Part shown: positions 1,749 to 30,570 of the stretch, in pieces | How the letters are laid out: every line of letters starts with the position of its first letter | Numbering within the stretch: position 1 is the first letter of the stretch | Assembly (NCBI GenBank): GCA_963743305.1 | Contig: CAVUPH010000016.1 | Span: forward strand, 53,461 to 117,460 | Origin: an uncultured delta proteobacterium | GTDB taxonomy: Bacteria > Desulfobacterota > RBG-13-43-22 | Direction of reading: 5' to 3' | Length of the DNA: 64,000 bases | Notes under the pieces: model-generated | Told to the model about the DNA's origin: nothing | Databases searched by the model: none | The model's input: only the letters and a program-made list of their open reading frames with translations | Program-made: the position numbers and the translations under genes

Positions 1749-1787
1749 CGCTGAAAGGCGTAATATTCCACTGCCCAGGAAAAGGTC

Positions 1788-1874
1788 GTCATCCCGGACA
1801 AGCGAAGCGGGATCCGGAATCCAGGGCCGTTGGGGCTTCAAATGCCCTAGATCCCGGATCAAGTCCGGGATGAC
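1788..1874. repeat. GTCAT...ATGAC palindromic REP-like element
   Basis: gtcatcccggac...ggaatccag...ctagatcccggatcaagtccgggatgac; intergenic, inverted ends. Confidence 0.8.
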
Positions 1875-1910
1875 GGTAAAGACAAATGCCTAAAAAAGGT
1901 TTTCGAGGTT

Positions 1911-3398: not shown

Positions 3399-3399
3399 A

Positions 3400-3912
3400 A
3401 TGTCCGGGCGCTGCGAATTAAAAATCGGAAATGAGACCAAAACGCTGGAGTGGCTGCCGGGAGAAGATCCGGACCGGGCTCGGATCCTTATTGGCGAAGC
3501 GGAATATATGGTTTTCTTTCAGGCCGTCGATGACCACCAGGTCCTGATGCAGGTGGACGGGCGGCCGATTCGGGCCTTCGTCGCCGGGGACGCGAACAGG
3601 AAATATGTGTTTATCGATGGCGAGGTCTTTGGGGTCGAGGAATTGGATCAGGCCCGGAAACGAAAAAAACGGGCGGGCCTGGATGAAAGTCCGGGAGAGG
3701 TGACCCCCCCCATGCCCGCCGTGGTGATCCGCATTCTGGTTCAAGAGGGGGAGGAGGTCGTCAAAGGACAGGGCTTGGTGGTGGTCTCGGCCATGAAGAT
3801 GGAAACGACCCTGAAGGCCCCTTTCGACGGCCTGGTGAAAAAGATAAATACCGCCTTGCAGGCCAAGGTCATGCCGGGAGACCGATTGATCGAGATCGAG
3901 GAAAGGAAGTAG
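3400..3912 (+). CDS. Biotin carboxyl carrier protein with BT-like N-terminal domain (split MCC/GCC alpha C-terminus)
   Basis: ATG at 3400 just after the previous stop; PPMPAVV...SAMKMET biotinylation motif. Confidence 0.85.
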   Translation: MSGRCELKIGNETKTLEWLPGEDPDRARILIGEAEYMVFFQAVDDHQVLMQVDGRPIRAFVAGDANRKYVFIDGEVFGVEELDQARKRKKRAGLDESPGEVTPPMPAVVIRILVQEGEEVVKGQGLVVVSAMKMETTLKAPFDGLVKKINTALQAKVMPGDRLIEIEERK

Positions 3913-3955
3913 CGACGGGCGCGTTTTAAGCCCGTCAGCGAGGTTATCAATAGTC

Positions 3956-4732
3956 ATGAGCGACGATCTCCTCTACGAAGTCAAAGATCAGACGGCCTTC
4001 CTGACCATTAACCGGGAAGACCGCCGCAACGCCATCAGCCAGGAAATGATCTCGACGTTTCATTCCTGCCTGGACCAGGCCGACCGGGATGAGACGGTTC
4101 GGGCCGTCTGTTTGACGGCTAAAGGGGACCGGGCCTTCTGTTCGGGGGCCGACTTGGGCCTCACCCTGGCCGGGGAAGGGGAAGACCGGTTGGCCGGGGC
4201 CAGGCATTATGCGGCTTTGATGAAAAAAATGTCCCGCTTCGGGAAGCCTACCGTGGCCCGGGTGAACGGTGCCTGTCTGGCCGGCGGATTGGGGCTGATG
4301 CTTTCCTGCGATATCGCCATCGCCCGCCAGGACGTCTCCTTCTGGACCCCGGAGGTCAACGTGGGGATATTCCCCATGATGGTGGGCGCTCTGCTGATCC
4401 GACAGGTGGGCTGGAAAAAGATGATGGATATGGTCTTGACCGGGAGGAAGGTTCCGGCTGCGGAAGCGGAGCGGATCGGCCTGATTTCCCGGGCGGTGGC
4501 GCCGGAGCGCCTGGAGGAAGAGGTACAGGAGGTATTAAGGGGTCTGACGGCCAAGAGCCCGATAGGGTTGCGGATCGGGAAAGAGGCCTTTCGGGAAATG
4601 GCCGATAAGCCCTTCGACGACGCGGTGGACTATCTCTGCGAAGCACTGGGCCGGGCCGTTTCCACGGAAGATGCGCTGGAAGGCATGATGGCCTTTATCG
4701 AAAAACGGGAACCGAATTTCAGGGGCCGCTGA
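3956..4732 (+). CDS. Enoyl-CoA hydratase (methylglutaconyl-/isohexenylglutaconyl-CoA hydratase-like)
   Basis: Crotonase motifs FCSGADL, GACLAGGLGL, PEVNVG; adjacent to the MCC-like genes. Confidence 0.85.
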   Translation: MSDDLLYEVKDQTAFLTINREDRRNAISQEMISTFHSCLDQADRDETVRAVCLTAKGDRAFCSGADLGLTLAGEGEDRLAGARHYAALMKKMSRFGKPTVARVNGACLAGGLGLMLSCDIAIARQDVSFWTPEVNVGIFPMMVGALLIRQVGWKKMMDMVLTGRKVPAAEAERIGLISRAVAPERLEEEVQEVLRGLTAKSPIGLRIGKEAFREMADKPFDDAVDYLCEALGRAVSTEDALEGMMAFIEKREPNFRGR

Positions 4733-9317: not shown

Positions 9318-11736
9318 ATGGGTTTTCAAATAAAAAAAGCCATGGTCATCGGTTCCGGTGTCATGGGCGGGGGAATCGCCGGCCATCTGGCCAACGCGGG
9401 GATCCCCGTTTACCTGGTGGATATCGTCCCCTTCAAGCTGACTCCCGCGGAGGAGGCCAAGGGGCTGACTTTGAAGAGCCCGGTCGTTCGCAACCGGATC
9501 GTCAATCAGGGAATAGATTTTCTGAAGAAATCCAAACCACCGGGGTTGTTCAGCCCCACCCGGATGGAGCTGATCACCGTCGGCAATATGGAAGATAATT
9601 TCGACTGGATCAAAGAGGCGGACTGGATCATCGAGGTGGTGGTCGAAAACCTCAAGATCAAACACGAGGTGATGGCCAAAATCGAAGCGGCCCGCAAACC
9701 CGGGCAGCATCGTCTCCACCAATACCTCCGGTCTGCCCATCTATCAGATTGCCGAAGGACGGTCAGACGAGTTCAAGGCCCATTTTCTGGGGACCCACTT
9801 CTTCAACCCGGCCCGGTATCTGAAGCTGCTGGAGATCATTCCCACGCCGGAAACCGACCCGAAGCTATCGGCCTTCATGATGCAATTCGGGGAACGCCGG
9901 TTGGGCAAGACCATGGTCTTGTGCAAGGATACCCCGAATTTCATCGCCAACCGGGTGGCCGGCATTACCGGGACTTCGGCCATCAACTACGTGTTGCAGA
10001 ACGATCTGACGGTGGAAGAGGTGGACGCCGTCACCGGTCCGCTGATCGGGCACCCCAAGACCGCCACCTTCCGACTTCAGGACCTGGTCGGACTGGACAT
10101 CGCCAGCCACGTGGCCAACAACCTCTATCCCGCCATCCCGGATGATCCTTTCCGGGAAGTCATCCAGGGGCCGGTGAAGGAACTGACCGGGAAAATGGTG
10201 GAAAAAGGCTGGTTGGGCAACAAGGCCAAACAAGGATTTTACAAAAAAATCAAAACCCCGGAGGGGAAAAAGGACTATCTCATACTAGACCTCAAGACCC
10301 TGGAATACCGACCTCAACAGAAACCGAATATTCCCTGGGTGAAACAGGCCAAAGGCATCGAATCCCTGCCGGAGCGGATAAAATTCATCAGCCGGCAGGA
10401 TGACCGAGTGGCCAAGATGATCGCCTTCAACACCGCCCAGGCTTTATCCTATTGTGCCTGGCTGATCCCGGAAATAGCGGATGTCCTCTACGCGGTAGAT
10501 GATGCCGTCCGGGCCGGTTTCTTCCATGAACTGGGGCCCTTTGAGATCTGGGATATCCTGGGGGTCAAGGAAACCGTCGAGCGGATGGAAGCCGAGGGAT
10601 TTAAAGTCGCCGCTTGGGTCAAAGAGATGATCGCCGGCGGCGGCGAGACTTTTTATAAGAAGGACGGGATTCGGAAGCTGTTTTGGGACCTGTCGAGCCG
10701 TTCCTATCAGCCCATCCCGGTGGACCCCAATTTTATTGTGCTTAAAGACCTGAAGGAAACCAAGGGCGTCCTGAAAAAGAACTTCAGCGCTTCCCTGATC
10801 GATCTGGGGGACGACGTCCTCTGCCTGGAGTTCCATTCCAAGATGAACGCCTTGGATCCGGATATTTTTGCTATGGGCACCCTGGCCCTGGAAGAGTTGG
10901 AAAAAGGCTATGCCGGCTTGGTGATCGGGAACCAGGGAGAAAATTTTTCCGTCGGGGCCAATGTGTTCAATGTGGTCATGGCCGCCGAAAACAAGATGTG
11001 GGGTGAAATCGAGCAGGGCGTCAAATCCATGCAGGACCTGCTGGTTGGGTTTCGCTACTGCAACAAACCGGTGGTGGCGGCGCCCTTCGGTATGGCTTTG
11101 GGGGGCGGGGCCGAAGTGGCCATGGCCGCCGACCGGATCTGTGCCGCCGGAGAGTCGTATCTGGGGCTGGTGGAAGTGGGCGTTGGGTTGCTGCCGGCCG
11201 GGGGCGGCTGTCGGGAACTGCTCCGACGGGTGGTTACACCGGCCATGAAACGGGCCGATTCCGATCCCCTGCCGTTCCTCGGGAAGGTATTTGAAAACGT
11301 CGCCATGGCCAAGGTCAGCGCCAGCGCTTTGCAGGCGCAGGAAATGGGCTTCCTGACCGATTGCGACCGGATTATCATGAAAGGGGAGCATGTTTTGGCC
11401 GAGGCCAAGCGGGAAGTACTGGCCCTGGCCGCCGCCGGCTATGCCCCGCCTCCGCGAACCAAATCGATCTACGCCTTGGGCCAGCGCGGTATAGCCGCCT
11501 TGTCCATTATGGTCCAATCCCTGCGCTGGGGGGATTTCATCTCCGAGTACGATATGTTTATCGCCAAAAAGATCGCCTATGTGCTTTCCGGCGGCGATTT
11601 AAGCGCTCCCCAGTGGGTGGACGAACAATATATCCTGGACCTGGAACGGGAGGCCTTCCTTTCCCTCTTGGGACAGGAGAAAACCATTGAACGGATCAAG
11701 CATCTGCTGATGACCGGCAAACCTTTACGGAATTAA
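9318..11736 (+). CDS. fadN: 3-hydroxyacyl-CoA dehydrogenase/enoyl-CoA hydratase (FadN-type); one frameshift near 9700
   Basis: GSGVMGGGIA; the alternate frame carries SIVSTNTSG and GTHFFNP; C-terminal crotonase domain and TGKPLRN end. Confidence 0.88.
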
Positions 11737-13232: not shown

Positions 13233-14456
13233 ATGTTTGATTTTTTATTGAGCGAGGAAGAAAAGGCTTTCCGGGATGAAGTCCGGGATTTTGTAAAAAC
13301 CGTCCCCAGTCAACTCCTGCGGGATATGGATAACAGCAAAATAGAGACCGGTCGGCCGTTCATCGAAATGGCGGCGGCCCGGAATCTTCTGGGAGCCCGT
13401 TTCCCGAAGGAGTACGGCGGCCGGGGGCTCAACTGGACGGCCGAAGTAGCGGGCGTGGAAGAGGTGGGGGTTTTAGGCAATTCCTTGTCCTGCGCTTACG
13501 TCATGCCCGGTATCGTGGGAGAGGCGGTCAACCTCTTTGGAACGGAAGAGCAGAAACGAAAGTACCTGGCGCCGACTCTGGCCGGGAAACTCTACAGCGC
13601 GGAGGCCTTGACCGAACCTCGGGGGGGATCCGATTTTTTCGGGGCCACCACCACGGCGGTCGAGGACGGCGATTGCTTCATACTCAATGGGGAAAAGAGG
13701 TTTGTGGTGGGCGCCCAGGATGCGGACTGGTTCCTGGTGTATGCCAAATCGGCCCCCCAGGCCCCGCCCCATCAATCGATCAGTTGTTTTATCGTGGAGC
13801 GGTCCTTCGGAGTGGAGGTTCAGAATATCTACCAATTGTTGGGAACCCGGGGCGGCGGGACCGGCCGCCTGGTTTTCAAGGATGTGCGGGTCCCCCGGGA
13901 AAATGTGGTGGGCGAATTACATAATGCCTATGCCATTTTCAATCGCATGATGATTCCCGAACGGTTGTTGAGCGGGGCCGGTTGCATCGGGGCCGGCCGG
14001 GCGGCCCTGGAGGTGGCGGCCCGGTATTCAACGCGGCGCAAGGCCTTCGGCCAGACCATTGATAAATTTCAGGCCGTCAATTTTATGCTGGCCGATTCTG
14101 TAGCCGCACTGGACGCCGCCTGCTCCCTGGTCTATACCGCGGCCAGGTTGGTCGATTCCGGCGCGGACGGCCGACGTCTGGTTTCCGAGGCCAAGAAGGT
14201 GGGCACCGAAACGGCCTGGCAGGTGATCAACAACGCCATGCAAATCATGGGCGGAATCGGCTATACCACGGTCTATCCCATCGAGCGACTTTTGCGCGAC
14301 TGCCGACTGGCCATGATCTGGACCGGGACCAACCAGGTGATGAACATGCTGGTCCAGCATGAATACTACAAGGAGCTCAAGCGCCGGGAAGGACTGGCCC
14401 GGGACATCGAGGGCGACGCCCAGACCCCGGATGAAGTGGAGAAGCATTATGGATGA
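13233..14456 (+). CDS. Acyl-CoA dehydrogenase
   Basis: LTEPRGGSD, GEKRFV, QIMGGIGY, IWTGTNQV. Confidence 0.9.
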   Translation: MFDFLLSEEEKAFRDEVRDFVKTVPSQLLRDMDNSKIETGRPFIEMAAARNLLGARFPKEYGGRGLNWTAEVAGVEEVGVLGNSLSCAYVMPGIVGEAVNLFGTEEQKRKYLAPTLAGKLYSAEALTEPRGGSDFFGATTTAVEDGDCFILNGEKRFVVGAQDADWFLVYAKSAPQAPPHQSISCFIVERSFGVEVQNIYQLLGTRGGGTGRLVFKDVRVPRENVVGELHNAYAIFNRMMIPERLLSGAGCIGAGRAALEVAARYSTRRKAFGQTIDKFQAVNFMLADSVAALDAACSLVYTAARLVDSGADGRRLVSEAKKVGTETAWQVINNAMQIMGGIGYTTVYPIERLLRDCRLAMIWTGTNQVMNMLVQHEYYKELKRREGLARDIEGDAQTPDEVEKHYG

Positions 14457-14487: not shown

Positions 14488-14689
14488 GTCATCCCGATCC
14501 CTTCGCTTACCGTCATCCTGAGCCCCGCACTGGTCATCCTGAGCGAAGCGAAGGATCTCGGTCTTCTGCGCGGGGTAGACTCCGCGAAGGATCTCGTCTT
14601 TCGGCTCAGGGTAAACTCCGTGAAGGATCTCGGAACTGGCTGAAAAAACAAAATTCTTCGTCCCGCGATAACGCAGGACGAAGAATGAC
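14488..14689. repeat. Compound GTCATCC...ATGAC REP-like element with internal iterations
   Basis: Three gtcatcc starts and three gaaggatctcg units. Confidence 0.75.
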
Positions 14690-14709: not shown

Positions 14710-16260
14710 ATGGGTCAATGGATGGACGGTTATCTGTCTCGCCTGGAGCGGGTTCGGCGGGAAAATCTGGAAGGCGGGGGAGAAAAGCGACTTCAGGAAT
14801 TGCGGGACCTGGGAAAACTCGGCGCCCGGGAGCGGATTGAAAAATTGTTGGACCCGGGAAGCTTCGAGGAGATCGGCTCCCTGGTTCGCGATGTCCGCCC
14901 CCCGTATGACGGACGGAAAAGACCCAGCCCGTCGGATGGAGTGGTGATGGGCTTGGGCAGCGTTCGCGGTCGAACGGCGGCCGTTTATGCCTTTGATTTT
15001 TCAGTGATGTCCGGTTCCCTGGGGGACCAGGCCGTCTGGAAACTGAACGATTTGACCAAGATGGCCGGACAGATGGGGATCCCGCTGTTCGGCCTGATCG
15101 ACTCGGCCGGGGAACGGATCAGCCTGAAGGGCGGGGATTCCGGATTGAACGGACTGGGCGAACTGCTCCGAAATACCTGCCTGTATTCCGGCATCATTCC
15201 CCGGGTCACCCTCCTCCTGGGACCCTGCACCGGGGTCATGGCCTCTCTGCCCGTGCTTTCCGATTTCCTGATCATGAATCGTCACACGGCTTTTCTCTGG
15301 CTGGGGGGTGAAAAGTCCACGAAAGAGGGGGGAAGCGCCGACTTCCACCAGGAGAAAAGCGGCCAGTGCGACCTGATCGCCGACAGCGACGACGAAGCCG
15401 TCGAGCAGGCCAGACTGCTGTTGGATTATGTTCCCCAGAACTGTTGGGATAAGCCTCCAGTGGTAGAGACGGGGGATGATCCCGACCGGCGGGAGGAAGA
15501 CCTGCTGGATATCATGCCCGACAACCCCAAGTTTACTTATGACATCCACGAGGTCATCGAGAAGATAGTGGACAACGGGGTGTTTTTGGAGCTCAAGGAA
15601 GATTTCGCTTCTCACCTGGTTATCGGTTTCGCCCGGTTCGGCGGGCTGGCGGCCGGCATCGTAGCCAACAACCCCGATGAATTGAGCGGAATCATGGAGC
15701 CGGATTCCTCGGACAAGTATGACCGCTTCATGAATTTCCTGGACGCCTTTAATATCCCCCTGGTGACCCTGGTGGATACCACGGCCTTTCCTCCCGGGGA
15801 CCGGTGGGAGCGGCTGGGGGTGATCCGTCACGGGGCCAAATTGCTCCATTCCTATGCCCACCTGACCTGCCCGAAGATCACCCTGGTCCTGCGGCGCTCC
15901 TACGGAGGGGCCAACATCGTCCTGGGCTGCTCCCGCATGTTCCCGGATTTTGTCTACACCTGGCCGACGGCCGAATTCGCTCCTACCGGCCCGGAAACCG
16001 TGGTTCATGCCGTGTTCCACAAAGAGCTGGCCAAGGCCAAGGAGCAGGGGAATTTTGATCAGGTGTTCAATCAATATCTCGGGATTCTCAAAGAGCAGTT
16101 CTCGGTGATGAATCTGGCCAAGGTTTGGACCTCCTATTATACGACCCATGAGGTGATCGACCCCAGGGACACCCGTCCGCGGATCATCCGGGCCCTTCAG
16201 GCCGTGAGCGGAAAGCGCGAGGAACTACCGGCCAAAAGGCGTTCCATCAAGCCGGCATAA
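14710..16260 (+). CDS. Divergent acyl-CoA carboxyltransferase subunit A
   Basis: ARERIEKLLDPGSF, DGVVMG, RRSYGGA, VIDPRDTR; N-domain loop GPCTGVMAS atypical. Confidence 0.88.
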   Translation: MGQWMDGYLSRLERVRRENLEGGGEKRLQELRDLGKLGARERIEKLLDPGSFEEIGSLVRDVRPPYDGRKRPSPSDGVVMGLGSVRGRTAAVYAFDFSVMSGSLGDQAVWKLNDLTKMAGQMGIPLFGLIDSAGERISLKGGDSGLNGLGELLRNTCLYSGIIPRVTLLLGPCTGVMASLPVLSDFLIMNRHTAFLWLGGEKSTKEGGSADFHQEKSGQCDLIADSDDEAVEQARLLLDYVPQNCWDKPPVVETGDDPDRREEDLLDIMPDNPKFTYDIHEVIEKIVDNGVFLELKEDFASHLVIGFARFGGLAAGIVANNPDELSGIMEPDSSDKYDRFMNFLDAFNIPLVTLVDTTAFPPGDRWERLGVIRHGAKLLHSYAHLTCPKITLVLRRSYGGANIVLGCSRMFPDFVYTWPTAEFAPTGPETVVHAVFHKELAKAKEQGNFDQVFNQYLGILKEQFSVMNLAKVWTSYYTTHEVIDPRDTRPRIIRALQAVSGKREELPAKRRSIKPA

Positions 16261-16371
16261 AGAATCGCACAAACAACGTGCGAGTCTTTATGGAAAAAAT
16301 GACCTTTGAAATGGGAGCCGAGCGGATGGGGCTGGGCAGAAAAATGAGTTGCTGAGACATAAGGTGATTCC

Positions 16372-17928
16372 ATGGGAGAAGGCTACGAGCAGGGGATTAA
16401 ACGGCTTAGGGAAATTCAGAAGAAAAACCTTACCGGGGGGGGCGAAGAGCATATCGAACGCCAGCACCGGAGGGGCAAGCTGACCGCCCGGGAACGGATC
16501 GAAACACTACTGGACCCAGGTACTTTCGGTGAACTGGGTTCGGTGGTGAATACCACCGGGTCCCGAATCGACGGGCGGGAATTCGATGCGCCCGGCGATG
16601 GGGCCGTGGTAGGAACGGGTCTGGTGGAGGGCCGCCGGATCGCGGTCTATGCCAGCGACTTCACCGTGTTGGGTGGCTCGATCGGAACCCAGCACGGGAT
16701 GAAGTTCGTTAAACTGATGGAGATGGCCGCCCGCTGGGGGATCCCCATGGTCTGGCTGTTGGACTCCTCGGGGGGGCGGTTGGGCTACCGGGATGTGCCC
16801 ATGGCCGGCATTGACTGGTGGTTCGCCCTCGAATCCCGGTTCTCCGGTTTAATACCGCAGATCAATGTTCTCCTGGGCCCCTGTATCGCCGGGCAAGCCT
16901 ATTGCCCGGTGCTCTGCGATTTTCTGCTGATGAGTCGGGGGTCGGCCCACCTCTGGCTGGGCGGGCCCCGGATGACCGAAGCCGCTACCTCGGAGAAAAT
17001 CGGCGAAGACGTGGGCGGCGCCGATTACCACATGGTCTACAGCGGCACCTGCGACCTGGTGGGGGATAATGATCGGGAAACGCTTTTGTTGACCCGGCGG
17101 TTGCTGGGTTATCTTCCTTCCAACTGGCGGGAGCGGCCGCCGGACCGGACGCCCTCCGATCCCCAGGACCGGAAAGTGGAGGAACTGCTGGCCATCGTCC
17201 CCGACAACTATGATCAACCCTATGATATGCACGAAGTGATCCGGGTTCTGGTGGATGACGGGGAAGTCCTGGAGATCAAGGACGAATACGCCAAAAACCT
17301 GATCACCTGTTTCTGCCGGTTTAACGGGCAGGTGGTGGGGTTGGTGGCCAACAACCCGAGGGAACCGGGCAGCATACTGGAGATCAATTCCTGTGATAAA
17401 TATTACCGTTTCCTCCAGGTCCTGGATGCCTATAACCTTCCGCTGGTCAATCTGGTGGATACGCCTCCGGTCGTACCCGGGGAAGAGCAGGAGGCCTTGG
17501 GGCTTTTGAGGCATGTCGGTAAAATCCTGGATGTCTATGCCACCTCGACTATTCCCAAGATCAGCGTCATCTTGAGGGAGGCCTACGCCGATGCCGGCAG
17601 CATCATCATGGGGGGCTCCAAGGGGCTGGGGGTCGATCTTTGCTACGCCTGGCCCATCGCCCGTTTGGCGGTAGAGGCCTCTACGGTTGATTACCAAAAG
17701 GTCTATGGGAAGGGGATCGAGGCGGATGCCTATGAAGGTTACCTGAACCGGTCCCGGGAAAAACTGGATATCTTTGAAGTGGCCCGGAGCTGGACGGCTC
17801 AGATCGTGGATGAGGTAATCGAGCCCCAAGACACCCGGAAGCGAATTATTGAGGCGTTGGACTTTACTCGAAACAAACAGGAAACGTTGCCGAAGCGGGC
17901 CAAGAGGCATGGGACGGGACCAACATAA
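16372..17928 (+). CDS. Divergent acyl-CoA carboxyltransferase subunit B
   Basis: GKLTARERIETLLDPG, DFTVLGGS, GPCIAGQAY; C-domain loop REAYADAGS atypical. Confidence 0.88.
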   Translation: MGEGYEQGIKRLREIQKKNLTGGGEEHIERQHRRGKLTARERIETLLDPGTFGELGSVVNTTGSRIDGREFDAPGDGAVVGTGLVEGRRIAVYASDFTVLGGSIGTQHGMKFVKLMEMAARWGIPMVWLLDSSGGRLGYRDVPMAGIDWWFALESRFSGLIPQINVLLGPCIAGQAYCPVLCDFLLMSRGSAHLWLGGPRMTEAATSEKIGEDVGGADYHMVYSGTCDLVGDNDRETLLLTRRLLGYLPSNWRERPPDRTPSDPQDRKVEELLAIVPDNYDQPYDMHEVIRVLVDDGEVLEIKDEYAKNLITCFCRFNGQVVGLVANNPREPGSILEINSCDKYYRFLQVLDAYNLPLVNLVDTPPVVPGEEQEALGLLRHVGKILDVYATSTIPKISVILREAYADAGSIIMGGSKGLGVDLCYAWPIARLAVEASTVDYQKVYGKGIEADAYEGYLNRSREKLDIFEVARSWTAQIVDEVIEPQDTRKRIIEALDFTRNKQETLPKRAKRHGTGPT

Positions 17929-17937
17929 GAGGTGACT

Positions 17938-18025
17938 ACGAATGTCGAATATCGAACAGGGAATGTCGAATGTTGAAGGAAAATACTAAGACCTTTGATT
18001 CAGTATTCGATATTCGACATTTGCA
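17938..18025. repeat. Heptamer-iterated palindrome (tcgaata type), second copy
   Basis: gaatgtcgaatatcgaa...cgaatgttgaag...attcgatattcgacatt. Confidence 0.7.
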
Positions 18026-18061
18026 TTCTAACGAACCACATCAACATTAAGGGAGAGAAAT

Positions 18062-18931
18062 ATGGGATCCAAGACCGTCATTACCTGCGCCTTGACCGGC
18101 GTTTTGACCAATCCGGCCGTTCACAACGTCCCGGTGACACCGGAGGAAATGGCCGAGCAGACCCAGCAGGCCTACGATGCCGGGGCCTCTACGGTACATG
18201 TTCATTTCCGGAATCAGGGTCCGGGGCTGGGGCATCTGCCCACCTGGGACCTGGAAACGGTTGGCGCCATCCTGGAGGCCGTCAAGACCCGGGTCCCGGA
18301 AATCATTATCTGTATGAGCACGGGGGTGATGGGGCCGGATATATCCGCTCCGGCGGCCTGCCTGGAAAAATTCAAACCGGAGATGGCCGCCTGTAACGCC
18401 GGATCGCTTAATTACCTGAAGTTGAAGAGCGACGGGAGGTGGGCCTGGCCGCCGACGCTGTTCGACAATCCGGTGGATAAGGTGGAAAGGTTTCTGCAGG
18501 TGATGAAGGCCAACGGCGTGGTTCCCGAATTTGAATGTTTCGACAGCGGGATCGTTCGAAGCGTCGGGCTGTACCAGCGTAACGGGATGTTCATCGGGCC
18601 GGCCCATATCTCCCTGGTCATGGGGGTGGCCAGCGGGATGCCGGCCAAGCCGGAATGGCTTCCGTTGTTGATGGAAGAGATGCCTGCGGGCGCCCTTTGG
18701 CAGGTGATCGCCATCGGGCGTCAGGATGTCTGGCCGCTCCACCGTCGATGTGTGGAATTGGGTGGAAACGTTCGAACCGGCCTGGAGGATACCTTCTATC
18801 TGCCCAACGGGGAAAAGGCCCCCCACAACGGGGCCTTGATCGAGGCCTTGGCCAAGGTGGTCCGGGAGGCGGGGAGAGAGATTGCCAGTCCGGCCGAGGC
18901 CCGGGAAATACTGGGGTTGCCTGTCCGGTGA
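18062..18931 (+). CDS. Beta-keto acid cleavage enzyme (BKACE/Kce, DUF849 family)
   Basis: ITCALTG, PVTPEE, HVHFR metal motif, STG, RTGLED. Confidence 0.9.
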   Translation: MGSKTVITCALTGVLTNPAVHNVPVTPEEMAEQTQQAYDAGASTVHVHFRNQGPGLGHLPTWDLETVGAILEAVKTRVPEIIICMSTGVMGPDISAPAACLEKFKPEMAACNAGSLNYLKLKSDGRWAWPPTLFDNPVDKVERFLQVMKANGVVPEFECFDSGIVRSVGLYQRNGMFIGPAHISLVMGVASGMPAKPEWLPLLMEEMPAGALWQVIAIGRQDVWPLHRRCVELGGNVRTGLEDTFYLPNGEKAPHNGALIEALAKVVREAGREIASPAEAREILGLPVR

Positions 18932-19041: not shown

Positions 19042-19305
19042 ATGGACATAGAAACCAACCCCAACTTGATCGAAATCCGAGCGCCCATGTCCGGGGTCTT
19101 TTACCGCCGGCCGGCGCCGGAACAACCGCTTTATGTCCAAGAGGGCGATGAAGTTAAAAAGAAACAGGTAGTGGGTTTGCTGGAAACCATGAAAGTTTTC
19201 CAGAAAGTTAAATCCCCGGGGACCGGTAAGGTGGTCAAAATCGTGGCGGAGAATGAGACCGCTTTGAAAGACGGTGACCTGATCATGGTCATCGAGGGCT
19301 CCTGA
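19042..19305 (+). CDS. accB: Biotin carboxyl carrier protein
   Basis: APMSGVFYRRP, ETMK biotin lysine; RBS aggagg. Confidence 0.85.
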   Translation: MDIETNPNLIEIRAPMSGVFYRRPAPEQPLYVQEGDEVKKKQVVGLLETMKVFQKVKSPGTGKVVKIVAENETALKDGDLIMVIEGS

Positions 19306-19313
19306 GACGGGGC

Positions 19314-20684
19314 ATGTTTTCCAAGATCCTTATCGCCAACCGGGGGGAGATCGCCCTCCGGATCATTCGGACCTGCCGGGAATTGGGCCTGCAGACAGTG
19401 GCCGTCTACTCGGAGGCCGACGTCCATTCGTTGCACCTGCAATTGGCGGATGAAACGGTGTGCATCGGGCCGGCCCCGAGCACTAAAAGTTATCTGGACG
19501 GGGAGCGGATTATCTCGGTGGCCAAAGCCAAGGGGGTACAGGCCGTTCATCCCGGTTACGGCTATCTGGCGGAAAATGACTCCTTTGCCCGGTCGTGTGA
19601 AGCGGCCGGGCTCGTTTTTATCGGACCTTCCTCCGATAGTCTTCGGCTGGCCGGGGAAAAAATCGCCGCCAAGAGGGTCATGAAAGAGGTCGGAGTGCCG
19701 GTGATTCCCGGCAGTGACCAGGGGGTGGGGACGACGGAAGAGGCCCTCCGGATTGGCGAGGAGATCGGCTACCCTTTAATGGTTAAGGCCGCCGGGGGGG
19801 GAGGCGGACGGGGCATTCGAATCTGTCCGGACCCCAAGACCCTGCGGGAGGATTTTCCCGTGGCCCGGGGAGAAGCCCGGGCGGCTTTCGGGACCGACGA
19901 GGTCTATCTTGAGAAATACCTGGCCGAACCCCGGCATATCGAGTTCCAGATTCTGGCCGACTGCCGGGGAAGGATCGTCCATTTGGGTGAGCGGGAGTGC
20001 AGCATCCAGCGGAGGTACCAGAAACTCATTGAGGAATCACCTTCGCCCCGGCTGACACCGGAACTTCGTCGGGTCATGGGGGCCATGGCCCTCCGGGCGG
20101 CCGCGGCCGTCGGTTACCGCAATGCCGGCACAGTGGAATTTCTGTTGGACGGGAACGGCCAATTCTACTTTATGGAAATCAATGCCCGGATCCAGGTGGA
20201 GCATCCGGTTACGGAAATGACTACCGGCGTCGATCTCATCCGGGAACAGATCCGACTGGCGGCCGGTGAAAACCTGTCCTTTCTTCAGGAGGATATCCGG
20301 TCCAGGGGTTGGGCGATTGAATGCCGGATCAATGCCGAGGATGCGGAAAGGCATTTTCTGCCTTCTCCCGGGAAGATTGAGCTCTATCGTCCCCCTGGAG
20401 GCTTCGGCCTGCGGTTGGATAGCCATCTTTATCAGGGCTATGAACTGCCGATCTTCTACGACTCCCTGGTCGCCAAGCTCATCGCCTGGGATCTTACCCG
20501 GAACGGGGCCATCCGGATAATGAAAAGGGCCTTGGAAGAGTTCCGGATCGAGCCGATTAAAACCACCATCCCACTACATCTGAAGATTATGGATGATCCT
20601 CTTTTTAATCAAGGGGAATTCAACACCCATTTTATCCAGAGACTCCTCCCCCAGGATGCGGAGGAAGAAGACGAGGACGAATAA
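19314..20684 (+). CDS. accC: Biotin carboxylase
   Basis: KILIANRGEIA, HPGYGYLAEN, ERECSIQRRYQK, FMEINARIQVEH. Confidence 0.93.
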   Translation: MFSKILIANRGEIALRIIRTCRELGLQTVAVYSEADVHSLHLQLADETVCIGPAPSTKSYLDGERIISVAKAKGVQAVHPGYGYLAENDSFARSCEAAGLVFIGPSSDSLRLAGEKIAAKRVMKEVGVPVIPGSDQGVGTTEEALRIGEEIGYPLMVKAAGGGGGRGIRICPDPKTLREDFPVARGEARAAFGTDEVYLEKYLAEPRHIEFQILADCRGRIVHLGERECSIQRRYQKLIEESPSPRLTPELRRVMGAMALRAAAAVGYRNAGTVEFLLDGNGQFYFMEINARIQVEHPVTEMTTGVDLIREQIRLAAGENLSFLQEDIRSRGWAIECRINAEDAERHFLPSPGKIELYRPPGGFGLRLDSHLYQGYELPIFYDSLVAKLIAWDLTRNGAIRIMKRALEEFRIEPIKTTIPLHLKIMDDPLFNQGEFNTHFIQRLLPQDAEEEDEDE

Positions 20685-20686
20685 GC

Positions 20687-21832
20687 ATGGATTTCGAACT
20701 TACCGAAGAACAGCGAATGCTCAAGGAGCAAGTGGCCCGTTTCGTCGACCAGGATGTCATCCCCCGGGCCCCGATCATCGATGAGGAGGAACGTTTTCCT
20801 GAGGAGAATTTCCGGGCCATGGCGGATATGGGTCTGTTCGGGATCGCCCTCCCCGAAGAATACGGGGGAGCGGGATCGGATTTCCTGTCCTGTGTACTGG
20901 TTATGGAAGAGCTGATGCGGGGGTGCGTTTCCACTGGAAACACCTACGGGGCCCACGCCATCCTCTGCACGGAAAGCATATTCAGGAACGGGAATGAGGC
21001 GCAGCGCCGGCGTTTTCTGCCGGACCTCATCGCCGGAAAAACGATCGGGGCCCTGGCTTTGACCGAGCCGGGCGCGGGATCGGACGCCCTTTCCCTGCGC
21101 TGCCGGGCTGAAAAGAAAGGAGATCGCTATATCCTGAACGGGTCCAAGACGTTTATCACCAACGGGCCCATCGCCGACGTGGCCATCGTCTATGCCAAAA
21201 CCAACCCGGAGGCCGGGCCGAAAGGCATTTCCGCCTTCATCGTGGAAGCGGGATTCCCGGGGTTCATCAAGGGGAAGCCCATGAAAAAGATGGGGGTCAG
21301 GGGTTCGCCGACCGGAGAACTGTTCTTCGAGAACTGCGAAGTCCCCCTGGAGAACCTGCTGGGCGAGGAAAACCGGGGAATCAACGTCCTGATGAGCGGC
21401 CTGGACCGCGAGCGGATCCTCTGGTCCATTGCGCCCATCGGCGTGGCCCAGGGGGCTTTCGACCTGGCCTTTCGGTACGCCCGGGAAAGGATCCAGTTCG
21501 GCCAGCCCATCATCCAATTTCAGATGATCCAGGATATCCTGGCCGGCATGGCCACGGAAATCCAGGCCGGGCGGGTCCTTTCCTACTGGGCGGCCACACT
21601 GGCCGGCAGCGGAAAAAAAGTGAGGCTGGAGGCCTCCTATGCCAAATTATTCTGCGCCGAGGCCGGGGTTCGGGCCGTGGGCCAGGCCATGCAGGTTTTC
21701 GGTGGGTACGGCTTCATTCGGGAATACCCCATCGAGCGGATGTACCGGGACGTAAAGGGCATCGAGTTCGGGGCGGGAACCAACCAGATCCAGAAGCTGA
21801 TTATCATGGGAGAGTTGATGAAAAAATCATAA
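20687..21832 (+). CDS. Acyl-CoA dehydrogenase, isovaleryl-CoA dehydrogenase-like
   Basis: YGAHAILC, ALTEPGAGSD, FITNGP, LMSGLDRER, GAGTNQI. Confidence 0.88.
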   Translation: MDFELTEEQRMLKEQVARFVDQDVIPRAPIIDEEERFPEENFRAMADMGLFGIALPEEYGGAGSDFLSCVLVMEELMRGCVSTGNTYGAHAILCTESIFRNGNEAQRRRFLPDLIAGKTIGALALTEPGAGSDALSLRCRAEKKGDRYILNGSKTFITNGPIADVAIVYAKTNPEAGPKGISAFIVEAGFPGFIKGKPMKKMGVRGSPTGELFFENCEVPLENLLGEENRGINVLMSGLDRERILWSIAPIGVAQGAFDLAFRYARERIQFGQPIIQFQMIQDILAGMATEIQAGRVLSYWAATLAGSGKKVRLEASYAKLFCAEAGVRAVGQAMQVFGGYGFIREYPIERMYRDVKGIEFGAGTNQIQKLIIMGELMKKS

Positions 21833-21860: not shown

Positions 21861-23537
21861 ATGGAAGAGAGAGGATCTGGCACAAATCTTATGACCCCCA
21901 GGTACCCCCGGGCATCGACTACGAGCCGCTCACCCTGCCCGAGGCCCTGGATCGAAGCGCCAGAAATTACCCGCATCAGGCAGCCCTGCTGATGATGGGC
22001 AAGAAGATCACCTACCGGGAGTTGAATGCCCTGGTGAACCGGTTTGCCAATGCCCTGCGGGACCTGGGAGTAAAAAAAGGCGACAAGGTGGCCCTGCTGC
22101 TGCCCAACATTCCCCAGGGGTTCATCGCCTGCTTATGCGGTTTTCCGCTTGGGCGCCGTGGTGGTCATGAACAACCCCCTGTACACCGAATCGGAACTGG
22201 AATACCAGCTCAATGATTCGGATTCCACGGTGGCCATCTCGCTCGACCTGCTCATCCCCCGTATCCTCAAATTGAAAGAAAAGACCGGGATCCGGACGAT
22301 CATTTCCTGTCATATTCGGGACTACCTTCCTTTTCCGGCCAAGCAACTCTTCCCCCTGGTCAAAAAAAGCCTGCATCGTCAACCCGTTTCCGGGGAAGAG
22401 GTCTATGAGTTCCTGGACCTGGTCAACAAATTTCCGGATCAGCCCCCGGACGCCGAAGTAAACCTGGACGACCTGGGAGCTCTGCTCTATACCGGCGGTA
22501 CCACCGGCGTTTCCAAGGGCGTCATGCTGACCCATAGAAATTTAAGTGTCAACGTCCAGCAGCTTCGGGCCTGGACTTTCGATGCCGGGGAAGGCCGGGA
22601 AAGCCTTATGGGAATCTTCCCCATTTTTCACAGCGCCGGGTTTACAGCGGTCATGAACCACTGCCTCTATCGAGGGTTGAGCATCATCCTGGTCCCGAAA
22701 CCTGACCCGGAGGGCGTACTCAAAATGACCAAGAAATACCGCCCGGACTACTTCCCCTGCGTCCCCACGCTCTATGTGGGCCTGCTCAATCATCCGGAAT
22801 TTCCCAAAACCGATTTTTCCTTTATCAAGGGGTGTGTCTCCGGCGCCGCCCCCCTGCCTCTGGAGACGCTCAAACAATGGAAAGATGTGGTCGGCGCCCA
22901 GATCATGGAGGTCTACGGCCTGACCGAGACCTCACCCCTTTCCCACGCCAACCCCTGGAGAGGAAAGGCCAAGGCGGGGAGCGTGGGACTACCCGTACCG
23001 GACACGGACTGCAAGATCGTCGACTTGGTGGACGGCACCAAGGAAATGGGACTGGGTGAAAGCGGAGAGATCTTGCTGAAAGGCCCGCAGCTTACCCAGG
23101 GTTATTACAAGAAACCGGAGGAGACGGCCGAGGCCATCCGGGACGGCTGGTTCTATACCGGAGACATCGGTTACCTGGACGACGAAGGGTACCTCTACAT
23201 CGTGGACCGCAAGAAAGACATGATCATCGCCGGCGGATTTAATATCTATCCCCGGGACATCGACGAAGTTCTTTATGAGCATCCCAAGATCAAGGAGGCC
23301 TGTGCCGTGGGCATCCCCGACCCCTACCGGGGCGAAACGGTCAAGGCCTTTATCGTTCCCCGGGAGGGGGAGACCTTGACCGCCGAGGAGGTCATCTTGT
23401 TCTGCCGGGAGAAACTGGCCGCCTATAAGACGCCCAAGCAGGTTGAATTTGTGGAGGATCTTCCCAAAAGCACGGTGGGAAAGGTGTTACGAAGGAAGCT
23501 CAGGGAAATGGAGATGGAAAAAGCTAAAAAGCAATAG
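21861..23537 (+). CDS. Long-chain fatty acid-CoA ligase; frameshifts near 21868 and 22130
   Basis: RBS aaggag plus ATG, then IWHKSYDP in a shifted frame; [26 protein letters not shown]. Confidence 0.88.
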
Positions 23538-23664
23538 AGAGGGAAGAAGTAAGAAAAGAGATGGAAGAGGGGAGATGGAAGAGGGAAGCAAAGACCCCTA
23601 CCCCCTAAACCCTGTACCCGGCAATAATGGGAAGAAGACAGAAGAGGCAGATGGGAAAGTTTTT

Positions 23665-25528
23665 ATGAGCGGCAGTTGGAATAGGTTTCTGGAAGTAGAA
23701 CTGGGTTCCGGGAAAACGGGAATCCGGAGGATCGATCAAGCGGATTTAAGGTTCTTTGTTGGTGGGGCTTCACTGGCGGCTCGATTTTTTTGCGATACGC
23801 CCGGACCGGAAGTCGATCCGTTGTCCCCGGAGAATCCCTTGTTGATCATGGCCGGGCCCCTGGTCGGGACGACCTTTCCCGGCACTTCCCGTTTTGTCCT
23901 CTGCGCCCGCTCTCCGCTGACCGGAATCTGGGGGGAATCCAGCGCCGGGGGGGCCTTCGGGGCCGATCTCAAGAAAGCCGGATATGACGGCATCTTCATT
24001 TCCGGGCGGGCGGAACGACCTTCCTATATCCTGATAGAGGATAACCGAGTCTCCCTTCGTGAAGCCGGGGACCTTTGGGGGAAAGATACCTACGACACCA
24101 TTGATGCGTTAAGAGGGAGACATCCGGGAAAACATCCGGTCAAGGTCCTGGCCATCGGGCCGGCCGGTGAGCACTTGGTTAAGTATGCCTCGGTTTGCCA
24201 TGATAAGGCCCATCACCTGGGGCGGACCGGGATGGGAGCGGTTATGGGCAGCAAGCAGCTTAAGGCCGTGCTCGTCCGGGGTTCGGGAAAGGTGCCTATT
24301 GCCCGGGAAGATGCTTTTGGTGAGGCCCGAAAGGCGGCTCTGCAGGCGATCAAGGAGTCCATGATGGCGGATTCGTTTCAGCAGTTGGGAACGGCGGCCG
24401 CCATGGACCTGGGGATGATGACCGGGGACGTTCCCCTGAAAAACTGGTCGCTGGGCGTCAATTATGAAATGGCCGATGCCCTCGGCGGACCGGCCCTGGC
24501 GGATAAAATGCTCCAGGGTCGGACGGCCTGTTATGCCTGCCCCATCGGCTGCAAGCCGGTGGTGGAGTTCCATAGTTCCTCCTTACGAACTGCGGAAGGG
24601 CCCCGGCCCGGAGTATGAGACCTGCGCGGCTTTCGGCACGATGATCATGAATGACAACCTGTATGCCGTGGCCCGGGCCAATGAGCGCTGCAACCGGCTG
24701 GGGCTGGACACGATCAGCTGCGGGGCCACCATCGCCTTCATCATGGAGGCCTTCGAGAAGGGGTTGCTGACCGCAAGCGAACTGGACGGCCTGGAGCTGC
24801 ACTGGGGCGGAATCGATTCCGCGCTGACCTTGATCGAGCGGATTGCTTATCGAAAGGGATTTGGGGATCAGGCGGCTGAAGGAAGCCGGGCACTGGCCGC
24901 AGGTTGGGAAGAGGGGCTGAAGCGTTTGAAGTGACCATTAAAGGGTTGGAGCTGCCGATGCATGATCCGCGCGGATTTCACGGCATGGCCCTGGCTTATA
25001 TGAATTCCAACCGGGGGGCCTGCCATTTGCAGCACTCGGTCCAGGCCGTGGAACAGGGGGTCGTGGTCTGGCCCGAGGCCGGTCTGCAGGAAGACTATGC
25101 GGCCCAGGAAAGCGAAGGGAAAGCCGAAATGGTCGCTCTTTCCGAAAATCTGGGGCAGATGTCCAACGCGGTCTGTGTCTGTCATTTCGTCCAATGGACC
25201 ATGGGCTTGACCAACCTCCTGAACGGGTTTAACGCGGTTACCGGCTATGAATTCGATTTCCGGGAATTTATGGAGGCGGGCCGGAGGTCCTGGGTTTTGA
25301 AACGGGCGCTGAACAACACCATGGGCGTAACTGCCGCGGACGACCGGCTGCCGAAACGAATTCTCACCCCGCTGGCGGAGGGAGGGGCGGCCGGGAGTGT
25401 TCCGGATGAGAATCGGTTGAAAAGTGACTATTACCGGATCCGCGGTCTGGATGAAAAAGGATTTCCCACAGAGGAAACCCTGAACGAACTCGGACTTTCG
25501 TTTGTAAACACCAGGCGTCATCCGATAA
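23665..25528 (+). CDS. aor: Aldehyde:ferredoxin oxidoreductase (W/Mo-bisPGD AOR family); several frameshifts, 3' end approximate
   Basis: SPLTGIWGES, GRTGMGAVMGSK, CYACPIGC, EYET, GLDTIS, HDPRG, DRLPKR spread over ORFs 23443, 24464 and 24904. Confidence 0.85.
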
Positions 25529-25544
25529 GGAGGAAACCATACTC

Positions 25545-25967
25545 ATGGCGAAACTGGAAGTGTTCAGCCCGGCCTGGTGTCAGGCCTGGGAGGAGAAAGT
25601 CAGGGCCAGCAAGGATTTTGCTCTCTTCAATAAAGGCTGGGAAGGGGATATCGGCTGTTTCATCCTCAAAGACCCGGCGGCCAATCTTCCGGAGGACCTG
25701 TACCTCTACCTGGATTTCGAGGACGGTAAGGTCAACGGTATCACCATGGTGGGCAGGGATAAGGCGGAACAGGCCAAGTTCATTATAACCGGTGATTACG
25801 TCCGTTGGAAACAGGTGGCCAAAAAGGAACTGGACGCGGTAAAGGCCATGATGCAGGGCAAGCTGAAGCTAAAGGGCAATCTGCCTTATGTCGTCAAGTA
25901 CATCAAAGGGGTGCAGGAGTCCATACGTTGTCTCACTGAGCTGGATTCAAAATTTCCGGATGATTAA
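25545..25967 (+). CDS. SCP2 sterol/lipid-binding domain protein
   Basis: FSPAWC...AMMQGKLKLKGNL; RBS aggagg. Confidence 0.8.
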   Translation: MAKLEVFSPAWCQAWEEKVRASKDFALFNKGWEGDIGCFILKDPAANLPEDLYLYLDFEDGKVNGITMVGRDKAEQAKFIITGDYVRWKQVAKKELDAVKAMMQGKLKLKGNLPYVVKYIKGVQESIRCLTELDSKFPDD

Positions 25968-27701: not shown

Positions 27702-29203
27702 ATGGAATCTTTGACGTTGTCGTAATAGGTGCCGGAAACGGCGGTCTCACCGCCTCGACCACCCTGGCCCAGAAGGGGCTCAAGGTCCTGCTGCTGGAAC
27801 GGCACAATATCCCCGGCGGCTGCGCCACCAGCTTCTGCCGGGGGCGGTTTGAGTTCGAGGTGGCCCTGCACCAGCTCAGCGGGGTAGGGACCTCGGAAAA
27901 TCCGGGCCCGCTCCGGATGCTTCTATCTCAACTGGGGATCCTGGACGACCTGGAACTGGTGGAGATGAAAGATCTTTTCAATGTCAGCGGTCCGGGGGAT
28001 TTTCGGCTGTCCCTGAAGCCCGACCGGGGTCAGGTGGTCGCTGCGCTTCAGGAACGGTTTCCTAAAGAGCGGGAAGGAATCGATCGGTTTTTCGAGCTTT
28101 CCTATCAGTATGCCCAGCAGATGCTTTCGGCCTTTTATTTCAAGGACCCGGAGCCTTCCCGGGAAAAATATCCGGTTCTCTATCACTACGCCTATAAACC
28201 GGCGATAGAAGTACTGGATGAACTGTTCGCTGATCCACTGCTTAAGTCCGTGATTTCTTCCTACTGGGGATTTTTAGGCCTCCCCCCCAGCCGGTTGTCT
28301 TTCGCCTACCTGGCCATGCTGTTTTTCGTTTATATCGAATTCAAGCCGTTTCATCTCAAAGGCGGCTCTCAGGCCTTGTCCAACGCTTTGATCAACCGCT
28401 TTTTATCCCAGGGCGGGACGGTCCGTTTCAATTGCGGGGTTGATAAGATCCTGATGAAAGAGGGACGCATTGAAGGGGTGGTCGTCGAATCAGGGGAGAA
28501 GATTAAGACCCGCTACCTGGTTTCCAATGCCTCCCCGGTGACCACCTACACCCGGCTATTGGATCCGGAAAATGTCCCGGAGTTTGTGTTTCAAGAAATG
28601 CGGGGAAGATCACTCAGCCCTTCGGCCTTTGTTTTGTATATGGGATTTGATTGCGAACCTCAGGAGCTGGGTATCACCGGTTCCATGACTTTTTTGGCCA
28701 CCCATACGGATATTTCGGATAGAAATCTCCTGGATATGCAGCGGTTGGATTTGGGCGACCAATTTATGGCCCTGAGTTGTTACGATGTGGCGGACCCCGA
28801 CTTTTCTCCGCCGGGGACCTGCCAGGTGAGTGCCGTTACCCTGAAATACGGGGAACCCTGGCTGCGGGTTCCTCCGGGGGAATACCATCGGGTGAAATTC
28901 CGCTGTGCCGAATCCATGCTGCGGCGGGTGGAGGCAGCTTTCCCGGGGGCGCGGAATCATATCGAGGAAATCGAGGCGGCCACCCCCCTGACCCACATGC
29001 GTTACCTGGGGCATCCCAACGGGTCCATTTACGGCTTCGAGCAATACACCAAGGACTCCATGTTCTTCCAACCCGGCCGGACTTCCCCCGTCTCGGGACT
29101 GTTTTTTGCCAGCGGCTGGACCGGGGACTGTGGGTTCCAGCCGACACTTGAGGCCGGGGCGGCGGCCGCCAGATCCATTATTCGGGAACTTGAAGGGAAG
29201 TAG
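27702..29203 (+). CDS. Phytoene dehydrogenase-like FAD-dependent oxidoreductase (COG1233); indel just after the start
   Basis: aaggag plus ATG; DVVVIGAGNGG, LLERHNIPGGCATSF upstream of ORF 27860; ATPLT, GSIYG. Confidence 0.85.
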
Positions 29204-29212
29204 GAGGGGACG

Positions 29213-30372: not shown

Positions 30373-30429
30373 ATTAAAACGAATTGCTCCGCCTCTCACC
30401 GGAGGAGGAGGGTTATATGTGGGGAGGAA

Positions 30430-30538
30430 TATCGGAAGGATGGAATGATGGAACGATAAGAAAAGGGCTGGTCAACGCTGACTGGACTGGTGGATTTCGC
30501 GGATTTGATTCCATTATTCCAATATTCCATCCTTCCTT
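30430..30538. repeat. Octamer-iterated palindrome (ggaatgat / attcc type)
   Basis: ggaaggatggaatgatggaa...ttccattattccaatattccatccttcc. Confidence 0.6.
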
Positions 30539-30570
30539 TGAAAATAAAAAAAATATCCGGAGGGATTACT

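Follow-up and report, generated by a model that had tools for sequence, protein, structure and literature searches.

Reciprocally degenerate half-sites in two adjacent PccB-lineage carboxyltransferases point to an obligate heteromer in uncultured deltaproteobacteria

The 64,000-nucleotide stretch of an uncultured delta proteobacterium studied here (assembly GCA_963743305.1, contig CAVUPH010000016.1, positions 53,461 to 117,460 of the forward strand; hereafter the window) carries two adjacent genes for carboxyltransferase (CT) subunits, termed A and B, whose conserved and degenerate halves are complementary:

14710-16260, + strand: CT subunit A, 516 amino acids (aa); acyl-CoA (N) half degenerate, biotin (C) half conserved
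16372-17928, + strand: CT subunit B, 518 aa; acyl-CoA (N) half conserved, biotin (C) half degenerate

In this enzyme family the active site is located between two-fold related partners: one subunit binds acyl-CoA through its N domain, which contributes oxyanion hole 1, and the other binds carboxybiotin through its C domain, which provides oxyanion hole 2. A preliminary description of the window had quoted the loop motifs GPCTGVMAS and RRSYGGA for A and GPCIAGQAY and REAYADAGS for B, all of which are found in the translations of the two open reading frames (ORFs), and both ORFs are full length. The Pfam family PF01039 (carboxyl transferase) covers nearly the full length of A and of B, and both are as long as most of their homologues, so that neither is a frameshift artefact. 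A and B are 42% identical to each other. The best matches among solved structures are PccB/MmdA-type chains (1vrg, 1x0u), with PccB, MmdA and transcarboxylase 12S as closest relatives in sequence and fold, and the matches listed in Foldseek searches with the monomer models all belong to the lineage of propionyl-CoA carboxylase (PCC), at TM values of ~0.74-0.77 for A and ~0.81-0.86 for B. With the curated family model TIGR01117, A scores 454 and B 465 bits, below the cut-off of 998.8, and models of AccA/AccD reach just 26-44 bits. A and B are each represented by at least 120 clusters of homologues with an identity of 69% or higher, and where such homologues have been named, the label is mostly propionyl-CoA or acetyl-CoA carboxylase. 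A and B are intact, full-length two-domain carboxyltransferases of the PccB lineage.

The proposed division of labour is manifested in the residues of the two half-sites. In PccB from S. coelicolor, G182/G183 of one subunit bind the acyl carbonyl and G419/A420 of the other bind biotin, the equivalents in methylcrotonyl-CoA carboxylase (MCC) being A218/G219 and A447/G448 (10.1101/2024.04.30.591959), and in AccD5 A148 and G187 are hydrogen-bond partners of the acyl carbonyl (10.64898/2026.02.06.704326). These residues were mapped onto A and B by motif and by a 39-residue spacing in an alignment with 1vrg, and conservation was evaluated in a broad set of 46 A and 48 B proteins, comprising the window and genome loci, and in a narrow set of the best 120 homologues of each protein. 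On the acyl side, the mapped oxyanion NH positions are E135/V176 in A and G135/G174 in B. The position of Gly183 holds Pro (26), Leu (13), Val (5) or Thr (2) in the 46 A proteins and Gly in 48 of 48 B proteins, the following position in B being Gly in 27 and Gln in 18 of the 48. The equivalent of A148 is S, E, L, A or Q in A (n=46) and G in all 48 B. The A173-G174 acyl loop of B is found in 48 of 48 sequences and GPCIAGQAY in 119 of the best 120 homologues, while the N loop of A is highly variable beyond GPCTG among its best 120 homologues. In A, a 10-residue helix following LWLGG is deleted, which is kept in B, PccB, MCC and the single-gene relatives described below. The biotin side displays the reciprocal pattern. 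The G-G-x-N loop of A (x = S/A/G/T; G399-G400-A401-N402 in the window, with G400-A401 as mapped biotin-side residues) is present in 46 of 46 proteins, and the best 120 homologues read RRSYGG[A/G]NI (117) or RRAYGGANI (3). A loop aromatic on this side (F360 in A) is F or Y in all 46 A and any of ten different residues in B; the Gly of an AVMG-type motif (G427 in A) is found in 46 of 46 A and in 0 of 48 B. In B, the two-residue insertion D407-A408, with Asp in 48 of 48, stands ahead of a retained G-S, and the C-terminal lid is shortened by an 8-residue deletion. Neither protein thus combines two intact oxyanion loops within one chain, A being devoid of Gly183 and B carrying the Asp insertion throughout the broad set. 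The asymmetry extends to entire domains, as the fraction of columns that are at least 95% conserved is 0.32 in the N and 0.54 in the C domain of A and 0.56 and 0.37 in those of B in the narrow set, and 0.28 and 0.40 (A) and 0.41 and 0.32 (B) in the broad set.

Three of the loop assignments made beforehand could be refined by these comparisons. REAYADAGS, which had been described as replacing the biotin loop of B, is present, although as an Asp-Ala insertion ahead of the retained G-S and not as a plain replacement. The N loop of B does share its Ala-Gly with A218-G219 of MCC, as implied by the term MCC-like, although this pair is not specific to MCC and both proteins are of the PCC lineage. Finally, Val in place of Gly183 in the altered GPCTGVMAS loop of A is weak evidence if taken alone. 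We have dropped this Val as proof that A is inactive, as residues other than Gly at 183 are also found in other CTs; stronger evidence for damage in A is provided by Pro in 26 of 46 sequences, which lack the oxyanion NH donor because Pro at 183 has no NH, by the deleted helix and by the domain-wide asymmetry in conservation.

Several observations weigh against a reciprocal loss of function. Non-Gly residues at 183 occur in CTs without adjacent partner (window 38511-40082; P0248, P0253, P0263, P0309), the mean conservation of the 48 B proteins is level across their domains (0.793 vs 0.790), with only the invariant fraction being different, and oxyanion hole 2 of B may survive, given that G-S is kept behind the insertion. 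A and B could alternatively be two complete enzymes of different specificity forming catalytic AA and BB dimers, separately or in one ring, with the substitutions being tolerated. AccD4/AccD5 constitutes a real hexamer of two paralogues with sites at the D4-D4 and D5-D5 interfaces, and oxyanion holes use backbone NH groups that tolerate some side chains, such as G169-A170 in AccD4. Still, AccD4 and AccD5 both keep both holes, whereas Pro183 in 26 of 46 A, the loss of the helix in A and the absence of the AVMG-type Gly and of part of the lid in B are difficult to reconcile with two complete sites, and conservation is reciprocal instead of uniform. We thus regard two self-sufficient enzymes as very improbable.

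The preliminary description had proposed to check whether homologues always occur as pairs. A and B share a DKYxRF motif in place of DKAARF in PccB, and a degenerate DKYxRF pattern, which matches just A and B within the window, was used to search GTDB genomes, yielding at least 161 stretches; 149 loci were analysed, 72 of them with flanks. The flanked loci fall into 58 contigs, with 53 containing A/B, three a single gene (L017, L020 and the distant L035), one a chimera (L031) and one a chance hit. In 46 of the 53 A/B contigs among the matches listed, a few of which are cut by contig ends or frameshifted, A is followed by an adjacent B on the same strand. The other seven comprise L045, L013, where the start of B lies at the contig end, and five further cases at contig ends. 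The unflanked loci number 77, of which 44 can be joined into 22 pairs on the same contig, in the order A then B in 22 of 22, and ten are of other types. These counts agree with an obligate heteromer. Hosts are mostly Desulfobacterota and unclassified deltaproteobacterial metagenome-assembled genomes, but also include members of Bacillota, Gammaproteobacteria and Chloroflexota, among others, and one locus (L010) belongs to the cultured Desulfallas sp. Bu1-1. A plasmid search with B matched 418 records, none of which contains a close orthologue of B (all <60% identity, best ~41%). On the opposite side of the balance, the counts apply to the matches listed and to loci with the shared motif, and the remaining 23 of the 77 unflanked loci are single A or B hits that lie outside these counts. 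The single real exception among the 53 flanked contigs is L045, where a full B (L045:8786-10534) lies behind only the last 40 codons of A, joined to the start of another gene. The trees of A and B mirror each other (Mantel r 0.92, 0/2000 permutations), which we have discounted as a sign of binding, as co-inheritance of adjacent genes suffices as cause.

The same survey argues against a recent tandem duplication with decaying copies or an assembly artefact. Several other genes of the window are split by apparent frameshifts, which would favour such an origin, but both ORFs of the pair are full length with the large families of homologues described above, their order is the same in all of the several phyla where the pair is found, and A and B, at their level of identity, are reciprocally monophyletic, leaving this explanation with a negligible probability. 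Some genomes contain two separate AB pairs (L055 and L060; L002 and L118/L119; L037 and L050), which suggests different substrates among subclades. Two chimeric forms were also found: at L031:4878-6019 the N-domain of A is fused to the C-domain of B next to a gap in the scaffold that is accompanied by duplicated sequence, and protein P0321 combines an A-like start with a B-like acyl site. Either misassembly or recombination between tandem copies would account for them.

The origin of the pair is illuminated by its single-gene relatives. A profile search of 50%-identity representatives retrieved three full-length A- or B-type clusters, followed by P0244, in which a single chain resembles B on its acyl side and A on its biotin side. 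L020 encodes a protein of the same type, the sole CT in its 20-kb locus, behind a gene for AtuA. In an IQ-TREE phylogeny of 43 of 123 rows, A (100/100), B (100/100) and A+B (100/99) form supported groups with L020_X and P0244 as sister (96/91), and FastTree recovers the same A, B and A+B groups from all 123 rows. A forced topology grouping A with the single-gene lineage was rejected (p-AU 0.027). The position of A and B as sister clades beside a single-gene lineage with both halves intact is consistent with one duplication that was followed by complementary loss, and the sequences fit such an origin from a PccB-lineage CT whose single-gene form would be active. A further single-gene lineage carries a DKYTRF-type motif (L084, L095, L112, L114, L149; protein P0246), and two of these loci are from genomes that also contain an AB pair.

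We then turned to structure prediction of the AB pairing, which was modelled as dimer against three controls. The mark used for judgement is attained by 116 of 157 pairs of known structure and by 2 of 215 mismatched ones. The AB model passes with 0.86, compared to 0.00 for the best control; contacts agree by at least 94% across runs and the partner pLDDT is at least 88. Low confidence in the conserved halves of the monomer models was set aside, since low sequence variation lowers pLDDT. An AB dimer contains two clefts, and residues at the model interface are more conserved in B(N)+A(C) (0.84, n=94) than in A(N)+B(C) (0.76, n=123; p=8e-4, with columns that are not independent). These results bear on the central claim of the preliminary description that only the B(N)+A(C) interface is catalytic, which is supported by pairing, reciprocal loss, the intact single-gene sister, interface conservation and the AB model. 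Two features of the modelling and one of the sequences temper this view: the pass of the AB model possibly reflects its likeness to solved PccB dimers, the model by itself is without the power to show obligacy, and the A(N)+B(C) cleft is under selection, since D407 of B and R136 of A are invariant and Y457 of B nearly so.

The latter cleft could have been repurposed in the same heteromer as an allosteric site, for docking of the carrier or for a second reaction. It is lined by new residues that are invariant or nearly so (conservation in B: D407 1.0, Y457 0.98, A453 0.96; in A: R136 1.0, S101 0.96), the contacts with lowest expected error in the AB model connect B449-460 with A100-103 and A136, and an allosteric role is a reported fate of obligate heteromers (PMC9548406). 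The same residues would equally suit a structural plug, as D407 directly precedes helix 408-412 in the monomer model of B and could cap its NH groups, and the high variability of the A loop after GPCTG also speaks against a new role, so that we regard repurposing as rather unlikely. We consider it quite probable that A and B form an obligate heteromer that works only as a pair. In the proposed mechanism, the B(N)+A(C) cleft would be complete and catalytic, whereas the A(N)+B(C) cleft would have lost the acyl-CoA NH donor and helix on the side of A and the biotin loop and lid on the side of B, and would probably be closed by D407 and the C-terminal helix of B. An AA dimer would bind biotin but not acyl-CoA and a BB dimer the reverse, leaving both presumably inactive. 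Three AB dimers likely assemble into the core, giving it three functional sites, which would be fed by a stand-alone biotin carboxylase (BC) and a carrier encoded downstream.

The genes surrounding the pair in the window are as follows:

13233-14456, + strand: acyl-CoA dehydrogenase directly upstream of A, sharing no more than 34% identity with dehydrogenases from other loci
18062-18931, + strand: protein of the BKACE/DUF849 beta-keto acid cleavage family (PF05853)
19042-19306, + strand: stand-alone biotin carboxyl carrier, 87 aa, ETMKV motif
19314-20684, + strand: stand-alone BC of AccC type, 456 aa (TIGR00514, 680 bits; cut-off 626.5)
20687-21832, + strand: acyl-CoA dehydrogenase, candidate enoyl-CoA source, 77-80% identical to post-BC dehydrogenases of L025, L042, L044 and L071
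21992-23537, + strand: acyl-CoA ligase in two overlapping ORFs (AMP-binding positions 19-64 and 69-384)
27860-31398, + strand: CrtI/CrtISO-like FAD enzyme, FNR-2Fe2S reductase and enoyl-CoA hydratase, distal genes of a subclade operon

The operon also encodes an alcohol dehydrogenase, an aldehyde oxidoreductase, a ligase and beta-oxidation genes. CrtI-like and FNR genes are also found in L018, L025, L047, L064 and L071, and the hydratase of the distal group is 66% identical to those of L025 and L071; the dehydrogenase upstream of A is not conserved beside other AB pairs. Conserved context was evaluated in those 19 contigs that extend for 4 kb or more on either side of the pair, by clustering ORFs of at least 75 aa and with profiles built from these loci. 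Carrier and BC are each found in 17, a hydratase in 15, BKACE in 12, AtuA in six, either BKACE or AtuA in 16 and a ligase in ten of them. The BKACE of the window is 64-80% identical to 17 of 18 BKACEs beside other AB pairs, which form one orthologous clade. BKACE and AtuA coincide in just 2 of 19 contigs, with 3.8 expected by chance, and the BKACE clade might, as a lead only, replace AtuA as cleavage enzyme. Of the two Glu residues of a crotonase such as 5zai, the recurrent hydratases have replaced the first by Gly and retain the second, a trait that is probably shared by LiuC and AtuE. The nearest plasmid-encoded BKACE (55%) belongs to one operon with a related hydratase (41%) and a CT that best matches geranyl-CoA carboxylase (GCC), and another related plasmid hydratase is found beside AtuA and an MCC-type CT. 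One BKACE group may act on 7-methyl-3-oxooct-6-enoate, and searches of NCBIfam and PDB returned no named activity for the linked hydratases, dehydrogenases or BKACE.

This context has narrowed the substrate, previously described as an unusual acyl-CoA, to a beta-branched enoyl-CoA, with gene neighbourhood as sole basis. In the Atu route, a dehydrogenase is followed by the carboxylase, a hydratase and the AtuA lyase (PMC4847356). The relatives of the linked hydratase, BKACE and AtuA that accompany GCC/MCC-type CTs, together with the operon content of the window, favour an ATP-dependent gamma-carboxylation of a beta-methyl-branched 2-enoyl-CoA, as catalysed by geranyl-/methylcrotonyl-CoA carboxylase, which we rate as slightly better than an even proposition. 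The product would then be hydrated and cleaved, thereby removing the branch, with the linked BKACE clade potentially supplying the missing cleavage step. Alternatively, the same heteromer may use a saturated or alkylmalonyl acyl-CoA as substrate and be an alpha-carboxylase, a decarboxylase or a transcarboxylase. Such activity would agree with its closest relatives PccB, MmdA and 12S, with the absence of the N-terminal extension or insertion of MCC/GCC from A and B, and with the assignment of known gamma-carboxylases to a lineage apart, the PCC lineage being tied to alpha-carboxylation (PMC4673880). In turn, ATP-driven carboxylation is favoured by the proximity of BC and carrier to the pair in 17 of 19 contigs, methylmalonyl-CoA mutase and epimerase are absent among the annotated recurrent neighbours, where hydratase, AtuA and BKACE recur, and A carries Asn at position 421 in 46 of 46 sequences, as do MCC and GCC, so that we assign the alternative a distinctly lower, though appreciable, likelihood.

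The preference for gamma-carboxylation has to be viewed in light of several reservations besides the lineage argument. Neither AtuA nor HMG-CoA lyase was found among the 56 proteins of the window that were scanned, and our locus-built profiles detected no BC or carrier within ~9 kb of two single-gene relatives. BKACE substrates vary (PMC4922564; 10.1101/2023.02.15.528638), Ala-Gly at 182-183 is not specific to MCC, and AtuA-like genes in anaerobic naphthalene degradation, described in a work whose accessible part mentions no CT (PMC12016498), imply that AtuA is not terpene-specific. A reading as steroid catabolism was rejected, with heteromeric dehydrogenase pairs in 5 and TIGR03084 in 3 of 19 contigs, the genes being sporadic. 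SDR fusion proteins, an SCP-x-type thiolase and an OYE flavoenzyme are encoded 5' of A in a subclade (L044, L061, L064 and L071), the fusions of L061 being SDR-MaoC and HMG-CoA-synthase-like/SDR/SCP2. The full proposal of an independently arisen PCC-lineage gamma-carboxylase for branched enoyl-CoAs, organized as obligate A3B3 with three catalytic and three sealed or regulatory clefts and found mostly in uncultured Desulfobacterota and other anaerobes, remains tentative and falls somewhat short of an even chance. The AB pair likely helps anaerobic bacteria to degrade branched fatty molecules.

The window contains further CTs and features of note. A second carboxylase module at 132-4732 (+ strand) consists of an MCC-type CT (best match 3u9r), followed by separate BC and carrier ORFs and a hydratase that shares 52-56% identity with the hydratases next to four AB pairs; in the CT, the selectivity position Phe191 is occupied by Gly, which suggests that a larger substrate could be accepted. 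A lone PccB-type CT at 38511-40082 (- strand), with Val at 183 and an altered AVMG-type motif, groups with P0248 and is divergent from an acyl-CoA dehydrogenase at 40283-41428; it is possibly a decarboxylase or another degenerate form. Split genes were found for a FadN-like protein (9318-11736), the ligase (21992-23537), the aldehyde oxidoreductase (23443-25788) and the FNR-2Fe2S protein (29213-30372), each of them broken into two or three ORFs that overlap and either match successive Pfam segments or have a homologous start, for which sequencing indels appear to be the likeliest cause. Repeats at 36-nt spacing, with three 12-nt copies and a 15-bp hairpin, lie 5' of A (14488-14686), and a 31-nt inverted repeat is located between B and BKACE (17934-18028); both look like intergenic palindromic elements.

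The A/B pair is undescribed in the literature that we found, which covers mostly freely readable main texts and contains AccD4/AccD5 as the only CT core of two paralogues. As homologues are mostly labelled propionyl-/acetyl-CoA carboxylase, this step is probably incorrect in metabolic reconstructions of these anaerobes, and either gene expressed singly would look dead. The surviving single-gene sister lineage makes duplication and complementary loss directly testable in a bacterial enzyme. If the substrate assignment were true, the pair would provide an anaerobic means to remove methyl branches from isoprenoid-type chains and show that the PCC scaffold can reach the gamma carbon; a gamma-carboxylase of A3B3 organization would contradict the rule by which alpha- and gamma-carboxylases belong to two structural lineages, and would define a second, independent route to the division of labour in AccA/AccD.

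The comparison with known systems illustrates how features of several families are combined. PccB, MmdA and 12S (1vrg, 1x0u, 1xny, 1on3) share with A and B the full-length two-domain crotonase-fold CT and PCC-type architecture, but are homo-oligomers with both half-sites on each chain, of which A and B keep one each. GCC and MCC (AtuC/AtuF, LiuB/LiuD) resemble the pair in their dehydrogenase/hydratase/AtuA context, which for A and B includes a hydratase with AtuA or a cleavage enzyme, in the Ala-Gly loop found on B and in the Asn after the biotin loop found on A. The counterparts of the Ala-Gly acyl loop and the G-A-G-N biotin loop of MCC/GCC, A173-G174 on B and G-G-x-N on A, are spread over two chains and not MCC-specific. 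A and B are only ~29-30% identical to the MCC-type CT of the window and start about where PccB-type chains do, 22 columns after it, thus without the ~30-residue N-terminal helix of MCC/GCC, and the separate BC and carrier of the window differ from the fused BC-BT-BCCP alpha subunit. GCC and MCC are further distinguished by a homohexameric beta core with N-terminal extension (PMC4673880). AccD4/AccD5 of the mycobacterial long-chain carboxylase also unite two full-length CT paralogues in one complex, though as a 2:4 heterohexamer of homodimers, in which each keeps both holes and an epsilon subunit, AccE5, is needed (10.64898/2026.02.06.704326; PMC13612425), whereas the predicted site of A and B requires both paralogues. 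A duplicated homomer that became an obligate heteromer with a shared site is also represented by yeast PFK1/2 and LCB1/LCB2, which are eukaryotic and of other folds, homomer retention being the dominant fate in bacteria (PMC9548406). Bacterial AccA/AccD and MdcD/MdcE of malonate decarboxylase, like A and B, hold one half-site per polypeptide and work with a stand-alone BC and carrier. MdcD/MdcE originate, as do AccA/AccD, from the splitting of a CT. AccA/AccD are single-domain subunits that arose by splitting one CT (PMC3199775), whereas A and B are two full-length chains, each with a degenerate extra domain. In its presumed mode of action the pair resembles AccA/AccD, in architecture PccB and in gene context GCC/MCC, while departing from each in a defining feature. 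Next to homohexamers, split single-domain pairs as in AccA/AccD and mixed rings of homodimers as in AccD4/AccD5, full-length chains with reciprocal half-sites would constitute a fourth arrangement of CT cores.

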